Below, one piece after another: positions 33,045-49,032 of a stretch of DNA of 64,000 nt. Origin of the DNA: a virus (taxonomy: Duplodnaviria > Caudoviricetes). The number at the start of each line of letters is the position of its first letter. Position 1 is the stretch's first letter. Below the pieces are notes generated by a model, which saw only the letters and a program-made list of their open reading frames with translations, made no database searches and was not told the origin of the DNA. The position numbers and the translations under genes were made by a program. The DNA lies in IMG/VR virus record IMGVR_UViG_3300032283_000551, positions 13,042 through 77,041 of that record; one strand, written 5' to 3'.

Positions 33045-33073
33045 TTGACATCTTATTAAAAGTAAGATATATT
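33045..33073 (+). promoter_or_regulatory. Early/middle sigma70-type promoter
   Basis: TTTTGG-TTGACA-N17-TATATT upstream of uvsY. Confidence 0.8.
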
Positions 33074-33099
33074 ACTAGTAATAATTGATAGGTGTTGTT

Positions 33100-34973: not shown

Positions 34974-34993
34974 TTATTGTTTCCTCACTACTG

Positions 34994-35023
34994 ATTATAT
35001 ACACATTTGAAAAAATGTCAACC
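34994..35023 (-). promoter_or_regulatory. Antisense sigma70-type promoter
   Basis: Minus strand reads TTTTGG-TTGACA-N16-TATAAT, same upstream motif as the sense early promoters. Confidence 0.6.
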
Positions 35024-35042
35024 AAAAAAATGGAGATATACC

Positions 35043-35612
35043 TTGGCACGTAATTATGTTAATAACCGTGATTTTTATGAAGCTATTAAAATGTATAAGG
35101 AAAAGATTGCTATTAATCCTGATACTAAAATTCCAGATTATATTGGTATGTGCATATTAAAGATTTGTGAGCGCTTGTCCACAAAACCAAATTTTATTGG
35201 TTATTCATTCCGTGATGAGATGATTGCTGATGGTGTTGAAAATTGTATTCATTCGGTTTTACTTTTTAATATCGAACGATCTGATAATCCGTTTGCTTAT
35301 TTTACACAAATTGCATGGAATGCATTCTTGCGCCGAATTGCTAAGGAAAAGAAAGAGCAATATATAAAGTATAAGAATATGCAAAATTCATTTCTCCAAA
35401 GTGATTATCTTGATGAATCTCTTTATGGTGATAGTGGTGGTGTTATCCATACAAAGAATAATGATGTTGCAAATGAAATTATTGGTTCTTTTGAAAAAAA
35501 GATGTTGACAAAACCTAAGAAAGTTGTTAAAATAGGTCTTGAAAAGTTCTGTGAAGGAGCACAAATGAATGGAAATGAAACACAAGTATCTAGTCCCACA
35601 ATCAGTAATTGA
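35043..35612 (+). CDS. gp55: Late transcription sigma factor gp55
   Basis: NYVNN..F...IPDYIG.C.LKI...LS.KPNFI.Y.FRDEMIADG.ENC...NPFAYFTQI; TTG start after GGAG. Confidence 0.95.
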   Translation: MARNYVNNRDFYEAIKMYKEKIAINPDTKIPDYIGMCILKICERLSTKPNFIGYSFRDEMIADGVENCIHSVLLFNIERSDNPFAYFTQIAWNAFLRRIAKEKKEQYIKYKNMQNSFLQSDYLDESLYGDSGGVIHTKNNDVANEIIGSFEKKMLTKPKKVVKIGLEKFCEGAQMNGNETQVSSPTISN

Positions 35613-35745
35613 TTGTGCTGAGGCTATGTTGAATGAAAAGAATTTAAATGTTCGTAGTACATATGAACAAAGACTTGAAGCCACACTTAAGTATTGTGAA
35701 AATGCTTTAAAACAAAATCAGCTCACACCTAAAAGAATGCGTTGA
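35569..35745 (+). CDS. Small hypothetical protein (58 aa)
   Basis: MEMKHKYLVPQSVIDCAE...; GGAG upstream; stop abuts gp47 ATG; overlaps gp55 3' end. Confidence 0.6.
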   Translation: MEMKHKYLVPQSVIDCAEAMLNEKNLNVRSTYEQRLEATLKYCENALKQNQLTPKRMR

Positions 35746-36813
35746 ATGAAAGTTGCTGTGATCGCTGACACTCATTGGGGTGTCAGAAATGATAATGTTG
35801 CATTTATGAATATGTCAAAGAATTTTCTTGATAACATATTCTTTCCTGAACTAGAAAAACAAAATATTAAAACTGTCATCCATTTAGGTGATTTAGTCGA
35901 TCGTCGCAAGCATATAAGTTATCTTACGGCGAGTCGACTTCGTGCTGATTTCCTTGAACCACTTGCAATTAAAGGTATTGAACTTATACCTATTGCCGGT
36001 AATCATGATGTATATTTTAAGAATACAAATCAAGTAAATGCTTTGACTGAATTGATTGAAGGTAAGTATGGAAATTGTAATAAACTCCATATTGATCCTT
36101 CAGAAATTATTCTTGATAATAAAAAGATCCTATTGCTTCCATGGATTTGCGCCGATAATCGTGAGCAGAGTATGCGAATGATTAAGGAATCCAAGGCACA
36201 ATATTGTATGGGTCATTTAGAACTTGCTGGTTTTGAAATGTATAAAGGGAGTATTAATACACATGGCGACGATCGTACAAACTTTGATAAATTTTCTCTC
36301 ACGCTGTCTGGCCATTATCACCATCGTTCTTTTGATGGCACCATTTGTTATACTGGTTCCCATGGTCAGTTTACTTGGTCTGATTACGGTGATGCTCGCG
36401 GCTTCCATATTTTGGATCTCGGAAAAAATGGATTAGAATTTATTAAAAATCCATATGAGATGTTTGGTAAGGTCTGGTATGATGATACCGATAAGGATCT
36501 TAACGAACTTTTAAATTATGATTTTAGTCAATTTACAAATAAGTTTGTAAAGCTAATTGTAACCAAGAAGAATAATCCATATTGGTTTGATTTGTTTTGT
36601 GAAAAGCTAGAAAAAGCAACCCCCATTGATTTTCAGATAGTCGAAGATCATAAGAATTTGATAATGGAAGATGAAAATATAATAAATGAAGCAGAATCTA
36701 CTATTGATATTTTCAAGCGTCACATCGATCAAATCGGGTCATCAAATGTTAATAAAAATAAGTTGACCAACGTCATAACCGATTTGTATACTCAAGCACT
36801 TTCAATCGAATAG
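35746..36813 (+). CDS. gp47: Recombination nuclease gp47 (Mre11/SbcD-like)
   Basis: DTHWG, HLGDLVD, GNHD, GHLE, SGHYH. Confidence 0.97.
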   Translation: MKVAVIADTHWGVRNDNVAFMNMSKNFLDNIFFPELEKQNIKTVIHLGDLVDRRKHISYLTASRLRADFLEPLAIKGIELIPIAGNHDVYFKNTNQVNALTELIEGKYGNCNKLHIDPSEIILDNKKILLLPWICADNREQSMRMIKESKAQYCMGHLELAGFEMYKGSINTHGDDRTNFDKFSLTLSGHYHHRSFDGTICYTGSHGQFTWSDYGDARGFHILDLGKNGLEFIKNPYEMFGKVWYDDTDKDLNELLNYDFSQFTNKFVKLIVTKKNNPYWFDLFCEKLEKATPIDFQIVEDHKNLIMEDENIINEAESTIDIFKRHIDQIGSSNVNKNKLTNVITDLYTQALSIE

Positions 36814-36820
36814 GATTACT

Positions 36821-38533
36821 ATGTCAATAGTATTTTCAAAACTTAGATGGAAGAATTTTCTTTCAACAGGTAATCAGTATACTGAAATTGATTTATCCAC
36901 TAGTGGAACAACTCTTATCGTTGGCCAAAATGGTGCTGGTAAATCAACCTGTCTTGATGCATTAACTTTTGCATTATTTGGTAAGCCATTTCGTAATATT
37001 AATAAGCCACAACTTATTAATTCAATTACAAAAAAGGATATGATTGTTGAGATTGAATTCAATATAGGTTCAAACTCATACAAGGTAATTCGAGGTGTCA
37101 AACCAACTGTATTTGAAGTATATTGCAATAATACACTTCTAAATCAGTCTGCTGAAATGCGTGATTATCAAGAAATACTTGAGAAACAAATTCTTCGTAT
37201 TAACTACAAGTCTTTTTGTCAAGTAGTTATTCTTGGTAGTGCTTCATTTGTTCCATTTATGCAATTGCCAGCTGGTCAGCGCAGAGGAATTATTGAAGAC
37301 CTTTTGGATCTTCAAGTATTCACTACCATGAATACTCTACTAAAAGAAAAGATTCAAACAAATAACGATGATATATTACAGAATAGTAATGACCAAAAGT
37401 TAGTCAAAGAAAAAATAAAGATGCTCAAAGGGCATCTACAAGATCTTCAGAATCGAAATGAGGAATTTGTAAAAAGAAAACAAGAACAACTAACTTCGAT
37501 TGAACATAGTATACTTTCATCATACAATCAACAAACTAAATTTATTGAGGAAGCTGGATTATCATTTTCTTATGCTATTGATGAAAAAACTAAGCTTTTT
37601 AAGAAGCTAAATCAATATGAACTACTTCTTATTCAAATGAGAGGTAAAATAGAAATTATATCAAAGGAGATTAAGTTTTTTAATAACTCAGATAATTGTC
37701 CGACATGTACACAACAAATTGACAAAACTTTTAGTTGTGATATAGTATCCACAAAGGAACAAGAAATATCAGAACTGAATGAAGGTATTTCAAAGTTATT
37801 AACTATTAAAGAATCTGTTGGAGAAAAATATAATAAAGTTTTATCTGATGAAGCAGAATATAAGAGATTAATGAATGAAGCTTCAAATGAAAAACTAAGT
37901 ATTAAAATTTTTACTCAACAAAAAGAACAAATAATCAATGAAATCAACAGTGTTGTTTCGGAGGTGAAAGAAACATCCGACTATAAAATTTCAGATTTGG
38001 AAGCAGAACTGACATCTTTGAGTGAAAAGTATAATGAACTTCAAGACGATAAGTTGACTCTAGGTGCTGCGTCTGTAATGCTTAAGGATGGTGGCATTAA
38101 GACCAAAATCATTAATCAATACATACCGATTATCAATAAGCTAATTAATAAGTACTTATCTGAATTTGATCTGTTCGTTGAATTTGAACTTGATGAACAA
38201 TTTAATGAAAAGATCAAGTCTAGATATAGAGATGAATTTAGTTATTCATCATTTAGTGAAGGTGAAAAGCAAAAGATTGATCTCGCTATTCTTTTTACAT
38301 GGAGAGCAGTTGCCAAACTTCGTAATTCATTGAATACTAACTTACTTATTCTTGATGAAATATTTGACTCGAGTCTTGATGGTAATGCCGCTGACGATCT
38401 TTTAAAGATTCTTCAGAATATAAGTCAGGATTCAAATATCTTTATTATTTCTCATAGAGAAAATCTCCATGACAAATTTGAGAATGTTATTAAATTTATA
38501 AAACATAAAAACTTTTCAAGGATTTCAGAATGA
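36821..38533 (+). CDS. gp46: Recombination ATPase gp46 (Rad50/SbcC-like)
   Basis: GQNGAGKS, CPTC zinc hook, FSEGEK, LILDEIFD. Confidence 0.97.
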   Translation: MSIVFSKLRWKNFLSTGNQYTEIDLSTSGTTLIVGQNGAGKSTCLDALTFALFGKPFRNINKPQLINSITKKDMIVEIEFNIGSNSYKVIRGVKPTVFEVYCNNTLLNQSAEMRDYQEILEKQILRINYKSFCQVVILGSASFVPFMQLPAGQRRGIIEDLLDLQVFTTMNTLLKEKIQTNNDDILQNSNDQKLVKEKIKMLKGHLQDLQNRNEEFVKRKQEQLTSIEHSILSSYNQQTKFIEEAGLSFSYAIDEKTKLFKKLNQYELLLIQMRGKIEIISKEIKFFNNSDNCPTCTQQIDKTFSCDIVSTKEQEISELNEGISKLLTIKESVGEKYNKVLSDEAEYKRLMNEASNEKLSIKIFTQQKEQIINEINSVVSEVKETSDYKISDLEAELTSLSEKYNELQDDKLTLGAASVMLKDGGIKTKIINQYIPIINKLINKYLSEFDLFVEFELDEQFNEKIKSRYRDEFSYSSFSEGEKQKIDLAILFTWRAVAKLRNSLNTNLLILDEIFDSSLDGNAADDLLKILQNISQDSNIFIISHRENLHDKFENVIKFIKHKNFSRISE

Positions 38534-39006
38534 AATTAGTTGATTATAAAGATCCTGTTTTAAAAGAAGTTTCAGAAAAGTTCGACTTTTCTAATCCACC
38601 TTTTGAACCTATTGAGTTTGCACAAGAACTTGTAAAATTTATGTATGATAACAATGGTATATGTGTAAGTGCACCACAAGTTGGTATACCATATAGGATA
38701 TTTGCTATGCGTGGACTACCTGAGAACTTTGTTTGTTATAATCCAAAGATTGTAATGCCAGGCGAAGAAGAAATTCGTATGGAAGAAATATCGTTGACAT
38801 ATCCGGGATTATGTGTTAAAATAAAAAGGCCAAGGCATTGCAAAGTTCGTTTTGCTACGCCCAATGGTGAAATTAGAACGGAAACATATACGGGTATGAC
38901 CGCTCGTGCATTTTTTCATTGTATGGATTTCCTTGACGGTGAAGTTTTCTATACAAAAGCAAATCCAATCCACCGTCAACAAGCTTTTAAGAAATGGAAA
39001 CGATGA
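38530..39006 (+). CDS. Peptide deformylase-like protein with degenerate catalytic motifs
   Basis: DPVL..., GICVSAPQVG (cf. GxGxAAxQ), EEISLTYPG (cf. EGCLS), ARAFFHCMDFLDG (cf. HExDHLxG). Confidence 0.8.
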   Translation: MKLVDYKDPVLKEVSEKFDFSNPPFEPIEFAQELVKFMYDNNGICVSAPQVGIPYRIFAMRGLPENFVCYNPKIVMPGEEEIRMEEISLTYPGLCVKIKRPRHCKVRFATPNGEIRTETYTGMTARAFFHCMDFLDGEVFYTKANPIHRQQAFKKWKR

Positions 39007-39542
39007 ATATTTTCTATCTGTCTACCGATGCACGCCAAGCGGCTCAATGGATGGTTGATAAACATGTTGTTAAAATGATTTTGGAATCGGCACAATTGCT
39101 GTCCACCGCACATCGTGTATTGGATGGTATTGAATCGGTTGGTAAATCACCAACTGGTCGTAAACAAAAGACCTGGACTCTTGGTGATGCTCGTGACTCT
39201 GTACTATATAAAGCTACCCATATTAATCACCCGTCTGCAATCTGGACTCGCAAGTCGGTTGAAAACTATAACTGGCTAGTAGATCATTTTTATGCACTTG
39301 GTGACGAATATACATATCGTTATGGTAAGACTCATAAATCTTTTACCGGTGATTTGGCTTATATGCTTCAGTCGCCGCCAAAGAACCTGACCGAATATGA
39401 TATGACAGTTATGCCATCTGCAATGGCCGATGAATTTGTTGTGGATGAAGATCCTATTATTAATTACCGTAATTACTACAAGATCGGGAAAGCAAGAATG
39501 CATTCCTGGAAAAACCGTCAACCACCTGAATGGATTATCTAA
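39003..39542 (+). CDS. Pyrimidine-dimer DNA glycosylase-like (DenV family)
   Basis: MNIFYL...DKHVVKMILESAQLLSTAH...LYKATHINHPS..W...YRNYY. Confidence 0.75.
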   Translation: MNIFYLSTDARQAAQWMVDKHVVKMILESAQLLSTAHRVLDGIESVGKSPTGRKQKTWTLGDARDSVLYKATHINHPSAIWTRKSVENYNWLVDHFYALGDEYTYRYGKTHKSFTGDLAYMLQSPPKNLTEYDMTVMPSAMADEFVVDEDPIINYRNYYKIGKARMHSWKNRQPPEWII

Positions 39543-39544
39543 AT

Positions 39545-39910
39545 ATGACATACGAAATTACAGAATCAGAAATTACCGTTATCCGTAATATTCAAGACAA
39601 GCTTTACGGACAAGCAAGTGCTATGGGTTGGCATGATAAGCCCCGTGAAATCGGGACTTTTATTGCTCTAGCTCATTCGGAACTTTCCGAAGCACTTGAA
39701 GGCGCTCGTAAGGATCTTATGGATGACCACTTGACAAATAGATCAATGCTTGAAGTGGAACTTGCTGATTGTATTATCCGCATTCTCGACATGGCTGGTC
39801 ATTATAAGTTGGATGTTGCAGGTGCTCTGGCAGAAAAGCATCAATATAATGCTAATCGTGCAGATCATAAGCGTGAAAATCGTGCCGCAGCTGGTGGTAA
39901 GAAATTCTAA
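39545..39910 (+). CDS. MazG-like nucleotide pyrophosphohydrolase
   Basis: IALAHSELSEALEG.RK...EVELADCIIRILD. Confidence 0.85.
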   Translation: MTYEITESEITVIRNIQDKLYGQASAMGWHDKPREIGTFIALAHSELSEALEGARKDLMDDHLTNRSMLEVELADCIIRILDMAGHYKLDVAGALAEKHQYNANRADHKRENRAAAGGKKF

Positions 39911-39932
39911 ATAACATTTGGGAGATAACCTA

Positions 39933-40241
39933 ATGACAATAGAAGTACGGGATACCTCCCAAGACTATGATGATATGGTTTCCTATAAAGCCAAAGAAAA
40001 TATTCGGACTGATTTGTCTGTATTCTTTGGTGAGGAAACCGATCAAAAGCCAATTGTTCCACCCAAGAAAATTGATCCAGATTTTCCTGAACAATGGCAA
40101 TCTTTATTTGTAAATTTTAGATCACATGATGATTTTGTCAAGTTCATGAAATTGATTGATGAAGTCCCATCACCTAAAACTAAAGATCTTATTTTTAAAG
40201 CAAATAAAGATAATGGTATTTTGAATTTTTTTGGAGATTAA
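39933..40241 (+). CDS. Small protein upstream of glycosyltransferase
   Basis: W.SLFVNFRSHDDFVKFMKLI...KTKDLIF motif, shared with next ORF. Confidence 0.6.
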   Translation: MTIEVRDTSQDYDDMVSYKAKENIRTDLSVFFGEETDQKPIVPPKKIDPDFPEQWQSLFVNFRSHDDFVKFMKLIDEVPSPKTKDLIFKANKDNGILNFFGD

Positions 40242-40242
40242 A

Positions 40243-40506
40243 ATGAATCTACATAAAACGATCGAAGATTTGGAAACGGATTGGCGAAATCCGTATGCAC
40301 AATGGTATGCAGCAGGTATGCCAGCATTTGTTACTAAAAATCTTGAGCCGTGGAAACAAATTTCAATTAAATTTCCTACCATGGAAGATCGTAAGAAATT
40401 TGCTGAAATCACCGGTTATTCTTTGACAGAAAAGACAAATGTTATTTGGTATCCCGATAAGGGCCGTGAGCGAAACAATATGAATAGAGTTATTGAAGAT
40501 GAGTAA
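40243..40506 (+). CDS. Small protein upstream of glycosyltransferase (paralogous motif)
   Basis: W.GMP.F...WKQISIKFPTMEDRKKFAEITG..LTEKT.VIWYP. Confidence 0.65.
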   Translation: MNLHKTIEDLETDWRNPYAQWYAAGMPAFVTKNLEPWKQISIKFPTMEDRKKFAEITGYSLTEKTNVIWYPDKGRERNNMNRVIEDE

Positions 40507-41437
40507 AGCAAGCCGTTATCCGATTTACATTATCAGTAAAGGTCGATGGGATTCTAGATATACTAGTAAAGCCCTAGAGCGTATGGGTGTTCCATATTAT
40601 ATTGCGGTTGAACCTCAAGAATATGATAATTATGCCGCTGTAATTGATCCAAAGAAAGTACTTACTTTACCTTTCAGTAATCATGGTAAAGGTTCAGGCC
40701 CTGCCCGTAACTGGTGCTGGGAACACTCACAAGCAAATGGATTTAAGCGTCACTGGCTTATGGATGATAATATCTATGAGTTTTGGCGCTTTCACCAGAA
40801 TAAGCGTTATCGTGTGGAGAAAGGTTCTGGTATCTTTAGAGCAACCGAAGATTTTGTGGATCGGTATGAAAATATTGCCCTAGCAGGTCTCCAATATAAG
40901 TTTTTCTGTGTGGATGATTATCCATACCCACCGTATATTCTTAACACTCGTATCATGTCATGTTTCTTAATTGACAATGATTGTCCACATAAGTGGCGTG
41001 GTCGCTATAATGAAGACGTTGATTTGTCCATCCGTGTTCTCAAGGAAGGCCTTTGCACCATGTTATTCTATGCTTTCCTTTGTGGTAAAGCAAGAACTGG
41101 TACTGTTAAGGGTGGTAATACATCGGAAGTTTATAATAACTATGCTGAAGATGCTTCATTAAAGAAGTCACAAATGCTTGTTGAGATGCATCCAGATGTA
41201 GTTACTCTTGACCAGCGCTACGGTCGAGTGCATCATCATGTCGACCTTAATGCTATTATTAATAAGAATGGTCAACCTGCTAGAGATAATCGACCAATCC
41301 TGAAAAAAGATGTTGACATTTTCAACAAAGTGGATAATTATGGTATGAGACTTATTCGTGAATGGGACACACCTGAAGCGTATGAAGATCTGGAATATTC
41401 CAGTGATGTATATCCACAAGGACGGAAAAATTATTAA
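40499..41437 (+). CDS. GREB1/TAGT-like GT-A glycosyltransferase
   Basis: YPIYIISKGR, YYIAVEPQEYDNY, ARNWCW, HWLMDDNI (DxD-like), WRGRYNEDVDLS. Confidence 0.8.
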   Translation: MSKASRYPIYIISKGRWDSRYTSKALERMGVPYYIAVEPQEYDNYAAVIDPKKVLTLPFSNHGKGSGPARNWCWEHSQANGFKRHWLMDDNIYEFWRFHQNKRYRVEKGSGIFRATEDFVDRYENIALAGLQYKFFCVDDYPYPPYILNTRIMSCFLIDNDCPHKWRGRYNEDVDLSIRVLKEGLCTMLFYAFLCGKARTGTVKGGNTSEVYNNYAEDASLKKSQMLVEMHPDVVTLDQRYGRVHHHVDLNAIINKNGQPARDNRPILKKDVDIFNKVDNYGMRLIREWDTPEAYEDLEYSSDVYPQGRKNY

Positions 41438-42396
41438 TGGCTAAAATTTTAATTACCGGTGGGGCAGGCTTCATCGGTTTTCATCTTGCGCAAAAACTTA
41501 TTAATAATGAAGATACCATTCATATTATTGATAATTTTAATGATTATTATGATGTCGAGTTGAAGCATGCTCGTGCAAAAATCCTATTTGATACTAACAA
41601 GGTTGAAATTTTTGGTCATGATCTGAACGACTCTAAGGTCTTACAGAAATATTTTATTACAAATAGGCCTGATATTGTAATCCATCTTGCTGCTCATGCT
41701 GGTGTCCGACATTCACTTGACCATACGATGGATTATATTCAAAATAATATTGTAGCGACTCAAAATCTTATCGCTATGTGTGAGATTTATGGTGTAAAGA
41801 AAGTAATTTATGCTTCAACTTCATGTGTTATGGCAGGTAATCCATTACCGTGGCGTGAAGATGTTGCAGTTGGTCATCAATTAAATCCATATGGATATAC
41901 CAAGCGCACAAATGAATGTCAGTTTATGACTTCTAAGATTCCAAATACTATTGGTCTTAGGTTCTTTACTGTTTATGGACCATACGGTCGACCCGACATG
42001 GCTCTATTTCAGTTTGCAAATGCGGCCGTCACTGGTGCACCAATCAATGTTTTTAACTATGGTGACATGAAGCGTGACTTTACCTATGTAGATGATATCA
42101 TCAATGGCATTATTATTGTTCTAGATCGCATTATATGTATTGACAAACCATTGGATGAGATATATAATATAGGGAGAGGTGAACAAATCCAACTTATGGA
42201 TTTTATCTCCGAGATCGAAACTAATTTTGATCGAATTATTACCAAGAATTTTGTCCCAAAGCACCCTGCCGATACATTGGAGACTTGGTCCGATACGACC
42301 AAGTTACAGGCTCTTGGATGGAAACCTTCGGTTTCTGTTCCTGAAGGTGTTGCAAAATTCTGTGAATGGTATAAATCATATTATGGGGTAAATTGA
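41437..42396 (+). CDS. NAD-dependent epimerase, UDP-glucuronate 4-epimerase-like
   Basis: GGAGFIG, HLAAHAGVRHS, YGYTK (YxxxK), LRFFTVYGPYGRPDMA, RDFTYVDD. Confidence 0.85.
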   Translation: MAKILITGGAGFIGFHLAQKLINNEDTIHIIDNFNDYYDVELKHARAKILFDTNKVEIFGHDLNDSKVLQKYFITNRPDIVIHLAAHAGVRHSLDHTMDYIQNNIVATQNLIAMCEIYGVKKVIYASTSCVMAGNPLPWREDVAVGHQLNPYGYTKRTNECQFMTSKIPNTIGLRFFTVYGPYGRPDMALFQFANAAVTGAPINVFNYGDMKRDFTYVDDIINGIIIVLDRIICIDKPLDEIYNIGRGEQIQLMDFISEIETNFDRIITKNFVPKHPADTLETWSDTTKLQALGWKPSVSVPEGVAKFCEWYKSYYGVN

Positions 42397-43254
42397 ATGA
42401 AAATTGCTATTATTGGACATGGATTTGTTGGAAAGGCCGTTGATTATGGCTTTCCCGATATTATGTGTGAAAAGTTTATTTTTGATCCACTGCTTAATAA
42501 CCCAGTCGAAAATATATCCTCAGTCGATAATATAGATTTTTCATTCGTCTGTGTCCCCACCCCTATGGGTATTAATGGCAGTATTGATTCTTCTATTATT
42601 GAAAATGTTTTGGCCGTATTAAAGAAAAATACAAGTGGAACAATTATCATTAAATCTACAATCACTCCTGATATTATCAGTAAAATTTTCCGAGGACCTC
42701 ACCGCGATCGAATTGTTTATAACCCGGAGTTTTTAACCGAAAAAAGTGCCAATGAGGATTTTGTAAATCCTTTCATGCATATTTTTGGTGGTAATCCGGA
42801 CTATACTAGTAAGGTTGAGGAATTATATAAGTATTATAGTCTTTGCAAGCCTTGTCCAGTATATCATATGTCTGCGGTGGATGCCAGTTTTGTCAAGTAT
42901 GGTGTTAATAGTTATCTGGCATCTAAGGTTCTTTGGTTTAATCAATTCTATGATATTGTTAATTCCGAGGGTGCAAATTTCGGTAAGGTAATCAGTGCTA
43001 TTACTGCTGATTCACGTGTGGGTAGATCACATACAACTGTCCCTGGCTTTGATGGAAAGAGAGGCTTTGGTGGTGCATGTTTCCCTAAAGACACCATGGC
43101 ATTCCTGAATTATTCTAAGAAGAATAAGCAAAATTTTTCTGTCCTGGAGACTGTTATTAGGGAAAATAATAACTATCGTAAGGGGTATGAAAAGGATACT
43201 AGGGAAATTGAACAGAATATTAATTTTGATATGGGAGTAACTAATGCCACCTGA
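42397..43254 (+). CDS. UDP-glucose 6-dehydrogenase-like, lacking C-terminal domain
   Basis: GHGFVG, FVCVPTP, IKSTI, YNPEFLTE, GFGGACFPKD (catalytic Cys); 285 aa. Confidence 0.85.
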   Translation: MKIAIIGHGFVGKAVDYGFPDIMCEKFIFDPLLNNPVENISSVDNIDFSFVCVPTPMGINGSIDSSIIENVLAVLKKNTSGTIIIKSTITPDIISKIFRGPHRDRIVYNPEFLTEKSANEDFVNPFMHIFGGNPDYTSKVEELYKYYSLCKPCPVYHMSAVDASFVKYGVNSYLASKVLWFNQFYDIVNSEGANFGKVISAITADSRVGRSHTTVPGFDGKRGFGGACFPKDTMAFLNYSKKNKQNFSVLETVIRENNNYRKGYEKDTREIEQNINFDMGVTNAT

Positions 43255-43534
43255 AAAATTTTTGTTTAAGTATAACGAAGGTCAAATACTAGACGAGCTA
43301 TATGCATATATAATGAAGACATATGGAAGTCATTACGGAGATAGAGTCCAAGCACAAGATCTGATAATTTCATCTGGTCACGCCGAAGGTTTCTATATTG
43401 GAAATGTTATTAAGTATGCTTCTCGCTATGGAAAAAAGAATGGTAAAAATAAAGATGATCTGATGAAGGTTCTTCACTATACTGTTCTTGCTCTAAATTA
43501 TCACTACATTGAAAATGAAAATAAGGAAAATTAA
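43244..43534 (+). CDS. DUF3310-like protein
   Basis: KTYGSHY...GHAEGFYIGNVIKY.SRYGKK.G....DL.K..HY. Confidence 0.7.
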   Translation: MPPEKFLFKYNEGQILDELYAYIMKTYGSHYGDRVQAQDLIISSGHAEGFYIGNVIKYASRYGKKNGKNKDDLMKVLHYTVLALNYHYIENENKEN

Positions 43535-43536
43535 TC

Positions 43537-44385
43537 ATGGAAATCTCGATTCAAATTGAAGAACTTCGTAAGCGTAAGATCTTTTTGGCAACCCCTATGT
43601 ATGGTGGTCAATGTGCAGGTATGTTTGCTAAGTCTGTTGCTGACTTGACATCTCTTTGTACATCTAATGGTATTGAACTACGTTCATATTTTTTGTTTAA
43701 TGAATCTCTTATCACTCGTGCACGCAATTATTGCGTAGATGAGTTTATGCGGTCCGATTGTACCCACATGATGTTTATTGACTCGGATATCGGATTTGAT
43801 CCTCGTGATGTTCTTGCAATGCTTGCACTCCAAAGTGATGATTCTGAATATGATGTTCTTGCAGGGCCTTATCCTAAGAAGTGCATCAGTTGGGAAAAGA
43901 TCAAGCTTGCTGTCGACAAGGGTATTGCTGACGAAGATCCCAATGTTCTTGAAAAGTTTGTTGGTGATTATGTTTTTAATCCAAAGGGCGGTGGTGGAAA
44001 CATCCGTATTGATATCCCGGTAGAAGTATCTGAAATTGGTACCGGATTTATGATGACTCGCCGTTCCGCTTTTGAAAAGTTTGAAAAGGCATTCCCTCAT
44101 TATAGTTATAAGCCAGATCATGTTCGCACTGAACAGTTTGATGGTTCTCGTGAAATCATGCAATACTTCCAGGCTGAAATTGATCCTGCCTCTAAGCGCT
44201 ATCTTTCGGAAGACTATTGGTTCTGTCAGAAACTTATTGAAATCGGTGGTAAGGTTTGGTATTGCCCATGGATGAAGCTCCAACACGTTGGTAGTTATAT
44301 CTTTGGTGGATCATTGATTGATCTAGCTTCTATCGGTGCACCTGCTACCGCTGACCCTGGTCTATTGAAGAAGACCAAGAAGTAA
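43537..44385 (+). CDS. GT-A-fold glycosyltransferase-like protein
   Basis: LATPMYGG, ESLITRARN, MFIDSDI, AGPYPKK, IGTGFM, YLSEDYWFC. Confidence 0.75.
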   Translation: MEISIQIEELRKRKIFLATPMYGGQCAGMFAKSVADLTSLCTSNGIELRSYFLFNESLITRARNYCVDEFMRSDCTHMMFIDSDIGFDPRDVLAMLALQSDDSEYDVLAGPYPKKCISWEKIKLAVDKGIADEDPNVLEKFVGDYVFNPKGGGGNIRIDIPVEVSEIGTGFMMTRRSAFEKFEKAFPHYSYKPDHVRTEQFDGSREIMQYFQAEIDPASKRYLSEDYWFCQKLIEIGGKVWYCPWMKLQHVGSYIFGGSLIDLASIGAPATADPGLLKKTKK

Positions 44386-44413
44386 TTTTTATATTTTATA
44401 ATGGAGAATGTGA

Positions 44414-45067
44414 ATGAAGATTAATAATAAGACCCTGAATATTCTTAAGAACTTTGCAACTATTAATCCCTCAATTATTGTAAAGCCTGGAAATATTCTA
44501 AAGACAATCTCCTCGAGCAAGACCATTCTTGCTCGGGCTGAGGTTCCCGATACATTTGAATACCCATTTGCAATTTACAATCTGTCTCAGTTTATTGGTT
44601 GTATTTCAATGTTTACGGATCCGGATCTTGACTTTGATGAAAGTTCTGTGACCATCAGCGATGGGAAGAATAAGATCGTATATCACTATGCTGATTCCTC
44701 GATCATTCTTGCGCCACCTGATAAAGATATTAATATTCCATCGGTTGATGCAGAATTTAAGATTTCAGCAACTGATATTCCTAGTGTTGCCAAGGCACTC
44801 AGTATTCTTGAACTTACTGAAATTGCATTTGTCGGCGATGGTGATAATATCCTTATTCAAGCTATTGACAGTAAAAACCCATCCTCAAATCAATATAGTG
44901 TAAAGGTTGGTGCTACCGATAAGGTTTTTAAGGCTATTTTCAAGCCTGATAATCTTAAGATGGTTCCTGATGACTATGTTGTCACACTTTCTTCTAAGGG
45001 CCTTTCAAAGTTTGTTGGTACTGAGGCTACATACTACGTAGCTATTGAGGCAACAAGCACTTTTTGA
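44414..45067 (+). CDS. gp45: Sliding clamp gp45
   Basis: TLNILKNFATINPSI..KPGN..KTIS...F.IYNLSQF. Confidence 0.95.
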   Translation: MKINNKTLNILKNFATINPSIIVKPGNILKTISSSKTILARAEVPDTFEYPFAIYNLSQFIGCISMFTDPDLDFDESSVTISDGKNKIVYHYADSSIILAPPDKDINIPSVDAEFKISATDIPSVAKALSILELTEIAFVGDGDNILIQAIDSKNPSSNQYSVKVGATDKVFKAIFKPDNLKMVPDDYVVTLSSKGLSKFVGTEATYYVAIEATSTF

Positions 45068-45096
45068 TTTACAATATAGTATTATTGGTGTATAAT
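45068..45096 (+). promoter_or_regulatory. Sigma70-type promoter for gp44
   Basis: TTTACA-N17-TATAAT. Confidence 0.7.
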
Positions 45097-45127
45097 AGGG
45101 TAGGGTGTATAACTCTACCCTTTTTTA
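45097..45127 (+). terminator. Terminator after gp45
   Basis: GGGTAGGG-TGTATAA-CTCTACCC then T7. Confidence 0.7.
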
Positions 45128-45142
45128 TGATGGAGAATTTAA

Positions 45143-46081
45143 ATGCTTGAGCAATTTTTGTGGGTGGAAAAGTATCGTCCAAAGAAGATTAGTGATACTA
45201 TTCTTCCGATCGAACTAAAGAAAACGTTTCAGCAATTTGTAGATCAAAAGAATATTCCAAATCTACTCCTCACCGGTTCGGCAGGTGTTGGTAAGACTAC
45301 CGTAGCTAAGGCCATGCTCGAAGAACTTGGTTGTGATTATATTGTCATTAACGGCTCGATGAATGGTAACATCGATACGCTTCGTAATGAAATCCAAAAC
45401 TTTGCTTCTACCGTATCGTTCGCTGGTGGTCGTAAATATGTAATTCTTGATGAGGCGGATTATCTAAATCCTAACTCTACACAACCTGCTCTCCGTAATT
45501 TTATGGAAGAGTTCAGTCGTAATTGTGGGTTTATTCTTACATGTAATTATAAGAATCGAATCATTGCACCTCTACATTCCAGATGTTCGGTCGTTGATTT
45601 TAGTATTCCTAAGGATTGTAAGCCCAAGTTGGCATCGCAATTCTTTAAGCGTGTAATTGGTATTCTTGATTCCGAAAAAATTTCATACGATCAAGCCGTT
45701 GTTGCAAATGTTATCCAAAAGCACTTTCCCGACTGGAGGCGTGTGCTTAATGAATTGCAGCGCTATAGTGCTATCGGTTCTATTGACTCAGGTATTCTGA
45801 CCAATTTCCAGGACCTATCAGTCAAGCAAATCTTTGATGCATGCAAGAAGAAGGATTTTGATGGAGTTCGGAAATGGGTTCATGATAATAGTGATCAAGA
45901 TCAGGTTGCCGTATTTCGTTCGGTCTACGAAAATTCATTTGAATATGTTTCAAAGAAGTCTATCCCTGAACTGATTGTTATTATTGCTGATTATCAATAC
46001 AAAGCGGCATTTGTGGTCAACCATGAAATTAATATGTTGGCATTCTTTGTAGAACTCATGATGCGTCTGGAGTGGCAATAA
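45143..46081 (+). CDS. gp44: Clamp loader large subunit gp44
   Basis: WVEKYRP, GSAGVGKTT, ILDEADYL, PLHSRC, FPDWRR. Confidence 0.97.
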   Translation: MLEQFLWVEKYRPKKISDTILPIELKKTFQQFVDQKNIPNLLLTGSAGVGKTTVAKAMLEELGCDYIVINGSMNGNIDTLRNEIQNFASTVSFAGGRKYVILDEADYLNPNSTQPALRNFMEEFSRNCGFILTCNYKNRIIAPLHSRCSVVDFSIPKDCKPKLASQFFKRVIGILDSEKISYDQAVVANVIQKHFPDWRRVLNELQRYSAIGSIDSGILTNFQDLSVKQIFDACKKKDFDGVRKWVHDNSDQDQVAVFRSVYENSFEYVSKKSIPELIVIIADYQYKAAFVVNHEINMLAFFVELMMRLEWQ

Positions 46082-46602
46082 TGGCTGTTAAGCCCAAGCG
46101 TGGTAAACAAGCCGAAAAGGTAGATCCTAATTCTATATCTACCATTTTCGGCAGGGTAGTGAAACACGAAGAGAAGGAAGAAAAGGGCGCCAACATTAAT
46201 CCATTTTCGTTTATCAACGATATTAATTTTGGTAAAGAATATATCTACAGCGATGAAACAAAGTCATCGTTTGAGCCCTATATCGTCACCAAGGCCATGT
46301 CTATCTTTCCAGACACTCTTTCTGATGCTATCTTTTTAAACTCAAATTTTCATCTCGATGAAAAGATGCAACATGACTACCTATTCTATAAGGTAGCCAA
46401 GCGCAAGAGATTCAAAAAGGATGCATGGTTTAAAAAGACAGAGGATGAAAAAAAGGAATTAAAAATCCTCAAGGATATTGGTAAAATCATTAATTATAAT
46501 CTAAATGAAACAAAACGATTCTGGAATATGCTTACAGAAGTACAAAGGAAAGACTTCCTGGAACAATATGTCTATCCAGACTCAAAGAATAAAACTAAAT
46601 AA
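46081..46602 (+). CDS. gp62: Clamp loader small subunit gp62
   Basis: NPFSFINDIN..K...FEPYIV.KA.S.FPDT...LN...L...MQ.DYL; position between gp44 and regA. Confidence 0.8.
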   Translation: MAVKPKRGKQAEKVDPNSISTIFGRVVKHEEKEEKGANINPFSFINDINFGKEYIYSDETKSSFEPYIVTKAMSIFPDTLSDAIFLNSNFHLDEKMQHDYLFYKVAKRKRFKKDAWFKKTEDEKKELKILKDIGKIINYNLNETKRFWNMLTEVQRKDFLEQYVYPDSKNKTK

Positions 46603-46634
46603 ATAAAGGAAAATAATAATGAGGTACTGCTGTT

Positions 46635-47033
46635 ATGTCTATAATGGAAACATTCCTGGAAGTGAAACTTGCTGAGGAAGAAGATTTCTTAAAAATTAAA
46701 GAAACTCTTACTCGTATTGGTATAGCTTCCCATAAAGAGAAGAAGCTATACCAATCTTGTCATATTTTGCATAATCGCGGTAGATATTTCATAGTTCATT
46801 TTAAAGAACTATTTCTACTTGATGGTAAAGAATCTGATTTTACTGAAGATGATATTGGTCGTCGTAATACCATAGCAAGTCTTGTAGAGCAGTGGGGTTT
46901 ATTCCGAATCGTTGACTATAAACGATTTGAGGAACCAAAAACACCTCTAAATAAGATTAAGGTTCTACCTTTTAAAGATAAAGATGAATGGACTCTTGTA
47001 TCCAAATATACGGTGGGCAAGAAAAAGCGATAA
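46635..47033 (+). CDS. regA: Translational repressor RegA
   Basis: DFLKIKETLTRIGIAS.KEKKLYQSCHILH.RG.YFIVHFKELF.LDG. Confidence 0.97.
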   Translation: MSIMETFLEVKLAEEEDFLKIKETLTRIGIASHKEKKLYQSCHILHNRGRYFIVHFKELFLLDGKESDFTEDDIGRRNTIASLVEQWGLFRIVDYKRFEEPKTPLNKIKVLPFKDKDEWTLVSKYTVGKKKR

Positions 47034-47047
47034 GGATATATTTTGTA

Positions 47048-47398
47048 ATGTTTAAGTGGTTATTTAAGCCTAAAGAAGTGAAAATTATTATACGCGATAG
47101 AGAACTTCAAAGACTAACAGATCTTCTATTCCCACCTCTCGAGCGAATTGAACGTGACGGTGATCTTTACCAGGTGGATTATTCAGTCGATATGAACCTG
47201 GATTCAGCACTTCAAGATCTTAAGGATGGTTCAAACGACAAAACCACCCAAGAGACCATCTCAAGGGTGTTGGATCGACTGATTGAAGCTAGAAAAATAC
47301 TAAATGCTTATCCGGTGTTAGATGAGAATACCAAGTTTCTCATCGTGGATAATCTACCTAACGAAAAAGAAAGAGAGATTAATCCTTCTCGGGACTAA
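47048..47398 (+). CDS. Hypothetical protein
   Basis: 116-aa ORF directly after regA. Confidence 0.65.
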   Translation: MFKWLFKPKEVKIIIRDRELQRLTDLLFPPLERIERDGDLYQVDYSVDMNLDSALQDLKDGSNDKTTQETISRVLDRLIEARKILNAYPVLDENTKFLIVDNLPNEKEREINPSRD

Positions 47399-47427
47399 CC
47401 TTCTCTTTACTTCGCTTATAAATCTTT

Positions 47428-47976
47428 TTAGACTCGACGACTCGTTTTCTGAACAAAGGTGTGTGCAGAGCCCGAGCAATTGGATTCCGCTTTTTGGGAA
47501 CCGGGCGCTTTTGCATAACTTTTCTCCTTCTTATGTTTATTAAAACCAAGATAAAGTTCTGATTCCATACCGTGAGCCTCAACCTCCCATGGCCAGGTGA
47601 AATAACCCCCATCATTTTTTGAGTGATGGATATTATGCCAGGAACACACAGAAGAGTCTCTTAGGTAATCTTTAAGTTGACCTAGCGCATATTGTTTCAC
47701 ATGGACCATCTCATGCGCTAGCGCCAGCAAAGTCCGTTTTTTACCCATATCACCATCAATGCGGATCGTAAACTCACGTGGTCGGATATTAATATCTTCC
47801 CACACACAATCCGCATCAATTTTATCTTTACGAACAAGTCCTTTCACAACCACAACTCGGATTTCGATATTCCTCAGCAGTCGTTTGCTCATCATGGTTT
47901 CCCCATAATGGACCAGCGACTCAAAGATCATATTCGGATCAACCTTTGACGGCCGATCAATGAGTGTGATATGCAT
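47428..47976 (-). CDS. Zincin metallopeptidase-like (SprT-like) protein
   Basis: LAHEMVHVKQY HExxH motif and PWEVEAH third-ligand Glu. Confidence 0.75.
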   Translation of the reverse strand: MHITLIDRPSKVDPNMIFESLVHYGETMMSKRLLRNIEIRVVVVKGLVRKDKIDADCVWEDINIRPREFTIRIDGDMGKKRTLLALAHEMVHVKQYALGQLKDYLRDSSVCSWHNIHHSKNDGGYFTWPWEVEAHGMESELYLGFNKHKKEKSYAKAPGSQKAESNCSGSAHTFVQKTSRRV

Positions 47977-48185
47977 TAAAACTTATTCTTAGAAATATGA
48001 TTCTTAGCATCCTTTTGAGTCTTAAAGTAAAGGATCGAACCATCACGGGCCCGGAGGTTATTTTGCATGGTGGAATCCCACACAAAGAATTCACGGGTCA
48101 ATGTGGATTCCATGACCTGGAAACGATTTTTGATCAGTTCCGAGACATAGTATCCTGGCAAGTTAATCTGAAGTATGACTGTCAT
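47976..48185 (-). CDS. Hypothetical protein
   Basis: GAGG RBS on minus strand; stop overlaps next start; downstream of a minus-strand promoter. Confidence 0.6.
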   Translation of the reverse strand: MTVILQINLPGYYVSELIKNRFQVMESTLTREFFVWDSTMQNNLRARDGSILYFKTQKDAKNHISKNKF

Positions 48186-48209
48186 ATATCTATCCTCAAT
48201 TTATAAGTT

Positions 48210-48238
48210 ATTATAACAAACTTTCGGGGTAAAGTCAA
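48210..48238 (-). promoter_or_regulatory. Early promoter for the minus-strand pair
   Basis: Minus strand TTGACT-N17-TATAAT. Confidence 0.75.
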
Positions 48239-48284
48239 CAAAAGTTTTGTTAACATTTTGTAATCCGATTCGACGATTTTTTGG

Positions 48285-48313
48285 TTGACATACCCCTCGA
48301 AATGGGATATATT
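48285..48313 (+). promoter_or_regulatory. Early promoter (divergent)
   Basis: TTTTGG-TTGACA-N17-TATATT. Confidence 0.8.
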
Positions 48314-48341
48314 ACATATATAAACAAGGGAATACCTAAAT

Positions 48342-48560
48342 ATGCTAACAGTCACTATCGATGTAGAACAAGCCGATAAAATTGTTATTTCACATTTGAC
48401 CAATACTGTTGGTGTTCTTATTGATATTATTGAGTTGAATAACAAGAATCCGAATGAAGACACCAATTCATATAATCAAGAATTGATGAATGAGATTCAA
48501 TCCATCAATAAAGTTATTGAATATTTTGGTGGAACTAAGGTTAAGGTACCTTTTAGCTAA
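48342..48560 (+). CDS. Hypothetical protein
   Basis: 72-aa ORF after promoter. Confidence 0.6.
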   Translation: MLTVTIDVEQADKIVISHLTNTVGVLIDIIELNNKNPNEDTNSYNQELMNEIQSINKVIEYFGGTKVKVPFS

Positions 48561-48568
48561 TAAGTTTT

Positions 48569-48653
48569 GCGGGCTTGGTGAAATGGTAGACACAAGAGAC
48601 TTAAAATCTCTCGGCTAAAAGCTGTACCGGTTCGAGTCCGGTAGCCCGCACCA
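48569..48653 (+). tRNA. tRNA-Leu(TAA)
   Basis: Cloverleaf, AGAGA-CTTAAAA-TCTCT, variable arm, CCA. Confidence 0.95.
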
Positions 48654-48696
48654 ACTACCTAAGATTAAAAATTACTAAATGTTAATACTTTTTTGG

Positions 48697-48725
48697 TTGA
48701 CAGACATTCAAATCTATGGTATAAT
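48697..48725 (+). promoter_or_regulatory. Early promoter for the tRNA array
   Basis: TTTTGG-TTGACA-N17-TATAAT. Confidence 0.85.
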
Positions 48726-48744
48726 CCACATATAAACAAATTGA

Positions 48745-48819
48745 GGATCCTTAGTTCAGCGGTAGAACACCGGACTTTTAATCCGTATGCCCTGGGTTCA
48801 AATCCCAGAGGATCCTCCA
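48745..48819 (+). tRNA. tRNA-Lys(TTT)
   Basis: Loop CTTTTAA, T-arm CTGGG-TTCAAAT-CCCAG, U73, CCA. Confidence 0.9.
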
Positions 48820-48852
48820 TTTGTTTGACCTTTATTATGAAAGATATATATT

Positions 48853-49032
48853 ATGTCGGAAGATTATAGGATTCAATTTTTGGATAATTCAGGTTGGCGT
48901 ACTTGTGTTACCTTTACTTCCCGAGCCGATGGTGCTATGGTAATGAGGGAAATGCAACAAGCCCAGGTGTATTATCCGGAATACCGAATTCGATGTGTTG
49001 ACCACAATGATCGACTGATTGATATGCTATAA
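48853..49032 (+). CDS. Small hypothetical protein (59 aa) inside the tRNA array
   Basis: MSEDYRIQFLDNSGWRT...RCVDHNDRLIDML; fills the spacer exactly. Confidence 0.55.
   Translation: MSEDYRIQFLDNSGWRTCVTFTSRADGAMVMREMQQAQVYYPEYRIRCVDHNDRLIDML

Follow-up and report, generated by a model that had tools for sequence, protein, structure and literature searches.

A putative DNA-glycosylation cassette with uronic-acid sugar genes between gp46 and gp45 of an uncultured freshwater T4-like phage

The 64,000-nucleotide stretch of IMG/VR record IMGVR_UViG_3300032283_000551 analyzed here (the window, in which all positions are numbered) comes from an uncultured freshwater T4-like phage and carries a cassette of sugar-related genes among its replication genes. 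A sequence-only reading of this DNA had described a run of uronic-acid sugar and glycosyltransferase genes between gp46 (36821-38533) and the gp45 sliding clamp gene (44414-45067; PF09116; phrog_223, E = 2e-72); profile matches and coordinates bore this out, and all genes that it named were found, all on the + strand. The interval contains a tightly packed run of genes for a MazG-like nucleotide pyrophosphatase (39530-39910; phrog_5658 pyrophosphatase, E = 1.6e-51), two small proteins designated s107 (39918-40241) and s91 (40231-40506), a TAGT-family glycosyltransferase (40493-41437), a UDP-glucuronate 4-epimerase-like SDR (41437-42396), a short UGDH-like protein ("mini-UGDH"; 42397-43254), a DUF3310 small protein (43244-43534), and p282, a predicted GT-A-fold glycosyltransferase (43537-44385). 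Neighboring genes overlap by 1-14 nt or are 0-28 nt apart, and base 41437 is common to the TAGT and SDR genes. Together with MazG, a dead-looking PDF gene and a DenV-like glycosylase gene separate gp46 from the cassette, and a terminator scan placed a terminator-like hairpin 3' of gp45 (45097-45121). As the TAGT is encoded in at least 192 contigs of IMG/VR and the loci examined (n = 80) keep the s107-s91-TAGT trio, this arrangement is not due to chance.

The TAGT protein matched the PF20691 profile over its full length (positions 1-205 of 205; 169.2 bits, cut-off 27.5; E = 1.5e-49) and also matched phrog_842, annotated as "beta-glucosyl-HMC-alpha-glucosyltransferase" (E = 4e-50); its start codon is probably the ATG at 40499. 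The translation contains R72, D90-D91-N92 and E174-D175 and fits the R...DD(D)...ED active-site motifs of phage GT-A/JGT enzymes, with the third Asp replaced by Asn. Across the 80 loci the TAGT is 70-99% conserved, with intact ORFs. Among relatives of this protein, the T6 TAGT-family enzyme attaches a further glucose to glucosyl-hmC, and 5hmC is glycosylated by phage GT-A/JGT-like enzymes (bioRxiv 10.1101/2023.12.21.572611). As the characterized microbial members of the family act on DNA, the strong PF20691 match favors a DNA target, and we predict that this JGT/GREB1-like GT-A protein is a DNA glycosyltransferase.

Both small proteins are associated with the TAGT. The s91 protein, which is a stand-alone domain here, matches the N-terminus of the Aeh1 TAGT (E = 8e-9); the same domain is fused N-terminally to TAGT in relatives and, in other phages, follows a ParB N-domain in a fusion, and a profile search with it recovered both the TAGT-fused and the ParB-N-fused forms. 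Single fused s91-TAGT ORFs (405-425 aa) occur at approx. 21 loci, while in three complete small phage genomes (G026, G030 and G036) a ParB-s91 gene adjoins the TAGT gene. An AF2 model of s91 (pLDDT 75) gave no fold match. Overall, we regard s91 as an accessory domain protein of the TAGT subfamily found here. The s107 protein, encoded in 66 of the 80 loci, has a core paralogous to s91 (the two align over a common core motif) and matches the N-terminal domain of the Aeh1 TAGT weakly. Its C-terminal tail, G(I/L)LxFFGD, is kept across 28 homologues, and its end (GILNFFGD) resembles that of gp43 of the same phage (STLESFFG). From this resemblance, s107 is likely a sliding-clamp adaptor, and we propose gp45 as the docking site for its tail.

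We also examined the two sugar-nucleotide enzymes. The SDR (PF01370, E = 4.7e-47) was closest among solved structures to 5u4q (260 bits), followed by the B. cereus UDP-GlcA 4-epimerase 6zl6/6zla (160 bits) and MoeE5 (113 bits), while UDP-xylose synthase, a UDP-GlcA decarboxylase, scored just 77 bits. The protein thus resembles known 4-epimerases more than it does decarboxylases or dehydratases, but the depositors' label of 5u4q, dTDP-glucose dehydratase, conflicts with this placement. When aligned to 6zl6, the SDR keeps the equivalents of T126, Y149, K153, T178 and R185, with Cys in place of S128; in the B. cereus enzyme Thr178 and Arg185 bind the carboxylate (PMC12338863 for the role of Arg185). 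By these residues the SDR appears to be UDP-glucuronate 4-epimerase-like and would convert UDP-GlcA to UDP-GalA, in agreement with the route from UDP-Glc via UDP-GlcA to UDP-GalA proposed earlier.

The earlier assignment of the next gene as a UDP-glucose dehydrogenase was upheld in part. The 285-aa protein consists of a shortened NAD domain (PF03721, profile positions 73-185 only) with the NAD motif GHGFVG (GxGxxG; residues 7-12) and a central domain (PF00984), and it keeps NPEFLTE, K/N and GGACFPKD, which are invariant in 18 homologues. These two are its sole Pfam domains; the C-terminal UDP-binding domain is absent, as the protein stops approx. 25 residues past the central domain and its alignment to 4a7p (446 aa) covers residues 81-305 of the latter. 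For this reason we class it as UGDH-like, not as a UGDH member, and it is a candidate for UDP-GlcA synthesis. This short form is stable, with a length of 275-311 aa kept in 42 loci at identities down to approx. 40%, and it is widespread (at least 386 IMG/VR contigs). It adjoins an orthologous SDR in 57 of 76 loci, compared to 19 loci with a TAGT, so that most loci with the SDR-dehydrogenase pair have no TAGT. UGDH homologues are also carried by cyanophages such as S-SSM7, and the phage studied here has a second sugar cluster, of heptose type, with a GT-B.

The last gene before gp45, p282, had no Pfam match above threshold. Its AF2 model (pLDDT 83, pTM 0.83) retrieved 108 PDB matches in Foldseek at E <= 1e-3, those listed all being GT-A enzymes (e.g., STIV A197, E = 6e-8); a DSD motif (D82-S-D84) is invariant, and 22 of 28 homologues show weak Anp1/GT21/GT2 matches. 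By these data p282 has the GT-A fold of a glycosyltransferase. With at least 8000 homologues, p282 adjoins gp45 in relatives with quite different cassettes (e.g., the p282 of Stenotrophomonas phage DLP6 is 66% identical and syntenic, although DLP6 carries a TET/JBP cassette instead). It is therefore a clade-wide gene beside gp45 that is not specific to the uronic-acid cassette, and the suggestion that two glycosyltransferases of one pathway build a di-sugar finds no support. Directly upstream of p282, DUF3310 (PF11753, E = 2.5e-11; phrog_480, phrog_236) recurs, and the order DUF3310-p282-gp45 is kept in sister loci of the TET/JBP type; these two genes may be part of a second, clade-wide step, or unrelated. 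MazG lies upstream of s107 in part of the related loci only, and its membership in the cassette is uncertain; in L128 a MazG/PRA-PH gene precedes TET/JBP. It may act on the dNTP pool in the manner of a dCTPase, and, going by family annotation (nucleotide kinase-related in PHROGs for DUF3310), MazG and DUF3310 could represent the dCTPase and dNMP kinase of a T-even-type pathway.

The sequence-only reading had noted that no base hydroxymethylase or TET/JBP is encoded in the window, which holds, and had proposed a search of the rest of the genome. Profile searches with PF00303 (thymidylate-synthase-type) and PF12851 (TET/JBP) found neither in the source contig (G000, 77 kb) nor in G005, a near-identical phage that adds approx. 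33 kb, so that approx. 110 kb of phage was covered. Neither family was found in the longest relatives, G001 (170 kb, 77% complete) and G006 (178 kb, 86% complete, two TAGTs), or in G002 and G004; these six genomes are all incomplete (28-86%). The three complete small genomes with a ParB-s91 gene also had neither. Furthermore, tblastn with two T4-like TET/JBP proteins gave no match in G000 or in any of the 80 TAGT loci, and neither a C5-methyltransferase (PF00145) nor a homologue of gp42 (dCMP hydroxymethylase) was found in the phage, whose sole thymidylate synthase type is ThyX. As PF00303 and PF12851 are absent even from the three complete genomes, the known acceptor-making step is missing, which suggests either that an unknown enzyme activates the base or that the transferase uses an acceptor of a new kind.

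No late promoter was found in 30977-49028, and the cassette runs in the same direction as the replication genes; from these features we take it to be transcribed early or middle. A perfect sigma-70 consensus (TTGACA-17-TATAAT; 42140-42168, + strand) lies within the SDR gene. This 12/12 match, a consensus match only, is possibly an internal early promoter for the genes downstream.

The genomic contexts seen in other phages support DNA as the most likely target of glycosylation. In sister contigs the gp46-gp45 slot holds DNA-modification cassettes, i.e., TAGT, a sugar nucleotidyltransferase and TET/JBP in DLP6; dCMP deaminase, MazG, TET/JBP and TAGT in L128; and TET/JBP, ADDT and a P-loop DNA kinase in L105. 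The orthologous SDR and short dehydrogenase lie directly behind a T4 alpha-GT-family gene, with ThyA-like and dCMP deaminase genes, in 22 contigs (e.g., L147, 4114-10816), and the pair co-occurs with TET/JBP in C48C1 and L126. Vibrio phage Kuja represents an independent combination, with two s91-TAGT fusions, ThyA, a full UGDH and an SDR.

Among described systems, the metavirome "subclass II" clusters of Pyle et al. (bioRxiv 10.1101/2023.12.21.572611) also show a GT-A TAGT/JGT-like transferase adjoining an SDR epimerase, with gp45/clamp genes reported nearby. A phage GT-A and epimerase pair from that study produced hexuronic-acid-5hmC (433 amu) in E. coli; as this adduct is published and the glucuronolactone of phage SP-15 is known, the modification can not be called new, as had been supposed. 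However, those clusters obtain 5hmC from a neighboring C5-methyltransferase and 5mYOX (TET) and their UDP-GlcA from the host, whereas in the present phage neither an MT nor a 5mYOX or ThyS was found, a short dehydrogenase is phage-encoded, and the transferase has two small proteins as obligatory accessory neighbors. The T-even glucosyl-hmC system (T2/T6 beta-glucosyl-HMC-alpha-glucosyltransferase) shares the phrog_842/PF20691 family, the T4-like genome and the location in a replication/nucleotide-metabolism region, but T-evens have gp42 dCMP hydroxymethylase, gp56, gp1 and a UDP-glucose donor, whereas the present phage has ThyX only, no homologue of gp42 was found in it, and its donor pathway is predicted to be one for a uronic acid. 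The TET/JBP-TAGT cassettes of DLP6, L128 and L105 and phage T-dioxygenase pathways (PMC13229309) resemble the present one in the gp46-PDF...DUF3310-p282-gp45 slot that holds TAGT and sugar-nucleotide genes; in those cassettes the TAGT is small, scores low and lacks the s91 domain, and a TET/JBP dioxygenase accompanies it, whereas the TAGT of the window belongs to the high-scoring subfamily and is accompanied by s91 and s107 but by no dioxygenase. Bacillus phage SP-15 (glucuronolactone-phosphate and glucose on dihydroxypentyluracil) likewise encodes a UDP-glucose dehydrogenase and places a uronic acid on DNA; unlike here, it is an unrelated phage with a full-length UGDH, and teichoic-acid-like enzymes attach the uronate via a phosphodiester to a 5-substituted uracil. 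Compared to bacterial UGDH (4a7p, 1dli) and UDP-GlcA 4-epimerase (B. cereus UGAepi, 6zla), both phage enzymes keep their catalytic motifs, but the dehydrogenase lacks approx. 40 NAD-domain residues as well as the whole C-terminal domain.

Overall, the best-supported reading is that of a sugar-acid modification of DNA, and we think it probable, with considerable reservation, that this is an early/middle DNA-glycosylation cassette of a T4-like phage that puts a uronic acid on DNA. The short dehydrogenase would make UDP-glucuronate and the SDR would epimerize it to UDP-galacturonate; the TAGT, acting jointly with s91, would then transfer the uronic acid onto phage DNA. The polymerase-like tail of s107 probably tethers the TAGT to the gp45 clamp, which would lead to modification of newly replicated DNA, and we infer a bulky anionic base adduct that would block restriction and CRISPR nucleases. 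In addition to the TAGT match, this reading is favored by the slot contents in sister contigs, the 22 contigs with alpha-GT-family and ThyA-like genes, the combination in Kuja, the s91-TAGT fusions and gp43-like tail of s107, the hexuronic-acid-5hmC obtained in E. coli, the 4-epimerase signature of the SDR (including the Arg185 equivalent), and the promoter and orientation data. It is weakened by the missing acceptor-making enzyme and the dehydrogenase's missing UDP-binding domain, which also sharpen the earlier caveat, still standing, that capsid or host-surface glycosylation is possible.

Weakening it further, GREB1, in the TAGT clade, O-glycosylates a protein, ER-alpha, and some of the best fold matches to p282 are enzymes that glycosylate proteins (COLGALT1, ppGalNAc-Ts, POMGnT1, mimivirus R699). 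It is nevertheless unlikely that the transferases glycosylate protein (replisome, virion, or s107/s91 themselves) in the manner of GREB1 or collagen/mucin GT-A enzymes, even with no base-hydroxylating enzyme found in complete genomes with the TAGT module, as every characterized phage TAGT/JGT-like enzyme acts on DNA, both the slot and the SDR-dehydrogenase pair recur in association with TET/JBP, ThyA-like and alpha-GT genes, and the s91 domain is common to ParB-like DNA proteins; expression that is not late argues against virion decoration in particular.

We give a low probability to the sugar genes being auxiliary metabolic genes that supply UDP-GalA and heptose for the LPS core or the capsule of the host, to exclude superinfecting phages or to keep progeny from sticking to debris, with the TAGT using another donor or having an unrelated role. 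The heptose-type cluster and GalA do fit LPS-core chemistry, which also weakens the DNA reading, as does the predominance, among the widespread SDR-dehydrogenase pairs, of those with no adjacent TAGT; the best solved SDR relative, 5u4q, is an enterobacterial enzyme, and the cyanophage UGDH homologues point the same way. On the other hand, pairs with no TAGT are usually coupled to DNA alpha-GT-family and ThyA-like genes, heptose and hexuronic acid are both documented as DNA adducts, and the cassette has no lipid-carrier, flippase or polymerase genes. Decay of the cassette, with the truncated dehydrogenase and split s91/TAGT as pseudogene-like leftovers of a TET/JBP or ThyA pathway, is highly improbable: the dehydrogenase is one domain short and s91 and TAGT form one ORF in some relatives, but the conserved length and intact catalytic motifs of the former, the conservation of intact TAGT ORFs, and the recurrence of split and fused forms across many lineages all argue against it.

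Returning to DNA as the target, we tentatively propose, as a rather doubtful extension, that the s91 domain and TAGT constitute a clamp- or ParB-assisted DNA glycosyltransferase needing neither a thymidylate-synthase-type hydroxymethylase nor TET/JBP, which would glycosylate a canonical base directly or via an undescribed base-activating enzyme; here it would place an anionic uronic acid on replicating DNA, with a minimal UDP-glucose dehydrogenase working without a UDP-binding domain. The domain-less dehydrogenase and the clamp-tail adaptor offer simple, testable biochemical leads. The sugar coating of DNA determines to which restriction, CRISPR and type IV systems a phage is vulnerable, and makes sequencing and engineering more difficult. 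As judged by the contig counts for the TAGT and the short dehydrogenase, the cassette is common among environmental T4-like phages and, if our reading is true, much aquatic myophage DNA would carry acidic sugars.

The source phage is a divergent T4-like myophage; T4-like core genes (gp23, gp20-22, UvsY, UvsW, gp47/46, gp45/44/62, RegA, UvsX and gp41) were found, and its gp43 shows about 50% identity to cyanomyophage polymerases. The window lies in a 77-kb IMG/VR viral contig (G000) that is about 46% complete; this phage is also represented by contigs of 148-159 kb that encode an identical p282, and the sequence was extended beyond G000 by 6.4 kb upstream (locus L090) and by 33 kb downstream (G005, a near-identical phage). 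A megablast search against 50,697 phage genomes returned no near-identical records. The gene run that the sequence-only reading had described between gp46 and gp45 was confirmed; from gp46 onward the + strand carries a PDF-like gene (38530-39006), a DenV-like glycosylase (38994-39542), MazG (39530-39910), the small paralogous proteins s107 (39918-40241) and s91 (40231-40506), the transferase TAGT (40493-41437), an epimerase-like SDR (41437-42396), a short dehydrogenase (42397-43254), a DUF3310 protein (43244-43534), the GT-A-fold transferase p282 (43537-44385) and gp45 (44414-45067). All junctions from the PDF-like gene to gp45 are overlaps or gaps of 28 nt or less, and a terminator-like hairpin lies 3' of gp45. 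No match to the T4-type late promoter (TATAAATA) was found across 30977-49028; a sigma-70 consensus (TTGACA-17-TATAAT, 12/12 match) is present at 42140-42168, within the SDR gene and 229 nt 5' of the dehydrogenase start. The DenV-like pyrimidine-dimer DNA glycosylase matches PF03013 at threshold, and many relatives keep this gene between PDF and the cassette.

The identity of TAGT is unambiguous (PF20691, 169 bits; phrog_842), with the motifs R72, DD(N)90-92 and ED174-175 in place. The solved structures closest to the SDR are 5u4q, the B. cereus UDP-glucuronate 4-epimerase UGAepi (6zl6, 6zla) and MoeE5, with UDP-xylose synthase scoring far lower, and the UGAepi residues Thr126, Tyr149, Lys153, Thr178 and Arg185, the last of which holds the UDP-GalA carboxylate (PMC12338863), are all retained. 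The dehydrogenase, previously read as a UDP-glucose dehydrogenase with GGACFPKD, does carry this motif together with GxGxxG, NPEFLTE and the Lys/Asn pair, yet it ends shortly past the central domain and lacks the C-terminal UDP-binding domain as well as about 40 NAD-domain residues; we therefore label it only UGDH-like. As it is paired with the epimerase SDR in 57 of 76 loci, we infer from this constant pairing that it produces UDP-GlcA. p282 has a GT-A fold and an invariant DSD motif with no significant Pfam matches; together with DUF3310 it is a fixed neighbor of gp45 across cassette types, and both are candidate members of this pathway. An arabinosyl-5hoC or pentose pathway was rejected, as the SDR resembles 4-epimerases more closely than UDP-xylose synthase and the sugar route (UGDH plus SDR) differs from that of RB69, DLP3 and Thanatos, where arabinose-5-P isomerase, kinase and uridylyltransferase genes are used.

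The two small proteins, s107 and s91, are parts of the transferase system. They share a core motif, and s91 (E 8e-9) and, weakly, s107 match the same N-terminal extension of the long Aeromonas phage Aeh1 TAGT. Moreover, s91 and TAGT form a single ORF of 405-425 aa in about 21 related loci, and the s91 profile also matches the N-terminal parts of the PTm1 TAGT and of both TAGTs of Vibrio phage Kuja, as well as small ORFs adjoining TAGT in other lineages. Cultured phages with the s91-TAGT module include Aeromonas phages Aeh1, 65 and phiAS5, Vibrio phage Kuja and Tenacibaculum phage PTm1. A structural search with the AF2 model of s91 gave no match (best Z 2.1). Compared to s91, s107 has an extra conserved C-terminal tail, G(I/L)LxFFGD, which at the sequence level resembles the end of the phage's own gp43 polymerase (...STLESFFG). 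The C-terminal end of T4-type polymerases is a clamp-binding peptide. Together, s91 and s107 make up a two-part accessory system that probably connects TAGT with the clamp.

The s91 domain was found in 2736 clusters of a library with 1.84 billion representatives; of the best 150 clusters, 85 have s91 on its own, 11 have it fused to TAGT and 26 have it behind a ParB N-terminal domain. This last architecture fits the possibility that ParB proteins which activate 5mYOX have s91 as their C-terminal domain, but TET/JBP (PF12851) is encoded in none of the 26 contigs that have ParB-N plus s91 proteins, and a link of s91 to TET is thus not supported. These genes adjoin TAGT, rather than TET/JBP: a high-scoring TAGT is present in 9 of the 15 longer contigs, none of which has ThyA, and it directly adjoins the ParB-s91 gene wherever coordinates were worked out. 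The TAGT-carrying contigs include the essentially complete genomes G026, G030 and G036. In four small phage genomes of 28-61 kb (L235, L238, L239 and L246, i.e., G026, G029, G030 and G036; three of four 98-100% complete), a ParB-N-domain protein with a terminal s91 domain lies directly beside a high-scoring TAGT, and neither TET/JBP nor ThyA homologues turned up in these genomes.

The absence from the window of a base hydroxymethylase or TET/JBP was borne out by profile searches of G000. Searches for PF00303, PF12851, PF00145, PF13640 and PF13759 were performed on contigs G000-G006, including G005, which reaches 33 kb beyond the window end, G001 (170 kb, 77% complete) and G006 (178 kb, 86% complete, two TAGTs). 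The contigs G000, G001, G002, G004, G005 and G006, all incomplete, were negative for ThyA-family, TET/JBP and C5-methyltransferase genes, although the PF12851 profile misses some phage dioxygenases; the only finds were ThyX (in G001, G002, G005 and G006, but not in G000) and a P4H-like 2OG oxygenase 10 kb upstream in G001. In G005, ThyX (C1:33081-33665; PF02511, 144 bits) lies just past where G000 ends, and no other thymidylate-synthase-type gene was found in this lineage; in G006 it is about 5 kb from the dehydrogenase. Similarly, tblastn with the TET/JBP proteins of Stenotrophomonas phage DLP6 and Phage C48C1, and with the ThyA-like proteins of Kuja and L147, gave no matches in any TAGT locus, and three orphan ORFs near cassettes (L139:3333-4205, L149:5763-6701 and L149:7124-7633) had no PDB sequence match. 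As all three of the complete small genomes that carry ParB-s91 and TAGT lack both ThyA and TET/JBP, this TAGT subfamily seems to need these enzymes neither nearby nor perhaps at all.

In the 80 IMG/VR loci examined, s107-s91-TAGT forms the constant part of the gp46-gp45 interval, and the downstream sugar genes vary (orthologous SDR plus dehydrogenase; SDR alone; a further SDR of the Kuja type, the dehydrogenase being present or absent; frequently dCMP deaminase; or nothing). Recognized DNA-hypermodification sets occupy this slot in sister T4-like phages. DLP6 carries TAGT, sugar nucleotidyltransferase, TET/JBP, PDF and p282 before gp45; locus L128 has dCMP deaminase, MazG, TET/JBP, TAGT, DUF3310 and p282; and a T4-like contig (L105:9941-16511) has a post-replicative thymidine hypermodification set of TET/JBP, glutamine amidotransferase, GNAT, amino-acid:DNA transferase (PF18724) and P-loop nucleotide kinase 3. 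A 211-aa ORF, absent from the window, lies between DUF3310 and p282 in TET/JBP-type sister loci (L128:4877-5512, a VWA-domain protein, and L105:15876-16511).

When searched alone, the SDR and short dehydrogenase pair was found directly behind a T4 alpha-glucosyltransferase-family gene in 22 contigs, with a ThyA-like gene (about 230 aa) and dCMP deaminase upstream and ThyX also in the genomes; the pair co-occurs with TET/JBP in C48C1 and L126. As the pair accompanies both TAGT and the T4 alpha-GT family, the donor pathway supplies DNA transferases of two distinct families. Kuja, which belongs to an unrelated phage family, has two s91-TAGT fusions, ThyA, full-length UGDH and SDR. Overall, this genomic context points to DNA as the target. 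A sister T4-like operon just before UvsX and gp41 (L147:2631-11999) comprises Kdo8P/DAHP-synthase-like, cytidylyltransferase-like and ThyA-like genes, dCMP deaminase, two radical-SAM proteins, a T4 alpha-GT-family transferase, SDR, short dehydrogenase and a C5-methylase-like protein, and seems to encode an elaborate hypermodification pathway of the pre-replicative type. In C48C1, where SDR and short dehydrogenase adjoin primase, TET/JBP (472 aa) is followed by a 344-aa protein without assignment and UDP-galactopyranose mutase (L088:5584-9031; OQ984149.1 49583-53030); as no C5-methyltransferase was seen nearby, this TET/JBP may be a thymine dioxygenase.

The proposal that the modification is new did not hold, since uronic-acid DNA glycosylation is already known: Pyle et al. 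(bioRxiv 10.1101/2023.12.21.572611) combined phage GT-A (JGT/TAGT-like) enzymes and their partner epimerases in reconstitution experiments, the products being hexuronic-acid-modified 5hmC and adducts of heptose and of Kdo, and pointed to gp45/clamp genes and epimerase genes in the vicinity of these transferases. SP-15, which encodes UGDH, bears glucuronolactone in its DNA. The second glucosyltransferase of T6 is also a TAGT. The cassette's own features are the phage-encoded minimal dehydrogenase, the s91/s107 accessory system and the lack of a recognizable acceptor-making enzyme. A second sugar cluster lies 3' of the window end, between nrdAB and RNase H (L139:7098-12007, i.e., G005:C1:41497-46406), with AdoMet decarboxylase, cytidylyltransferase-like, TylF-type O-methyltransferase, SDR, GT-B glycosyltransferase, GHMP kinase and SIS (GmhA-like) isomerase genes; it looks like a heptose-nucleotide pathway, and heptosyl-5hmC from a CTP-transferase plus GT-B set was described by Pyle et al. 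(bioRxiv 10.1101/2023.12.21.572611). S-adenosylmethionine decarboxylase is also encoded in the window (51725-52102; PF02675, E 9e-28), the G005 copy (L139:7098-7481) being a second one.

The shortness of the dehydrogenase could be taken as a sign that the cassette is a decay product; as all 42 homologues fall within 275-311 aa with invariant catalytic residues, we regard decay as very improbable. That the transferases act on a protein acceptor is unlikely in our judgment, and that the sugar genes remodel the envelope is more doubtful still. We consider a co-replicative DNA glycosylation cassette the most likely reading and hold it with moderate confidence. The short dehydrogenase and SDR would make the sugar donor, UDP-GalA or UDP-GlcA, and s91 and s107 would join TAGT to the gp45 clamp, so that glycosylation would accompany replication.
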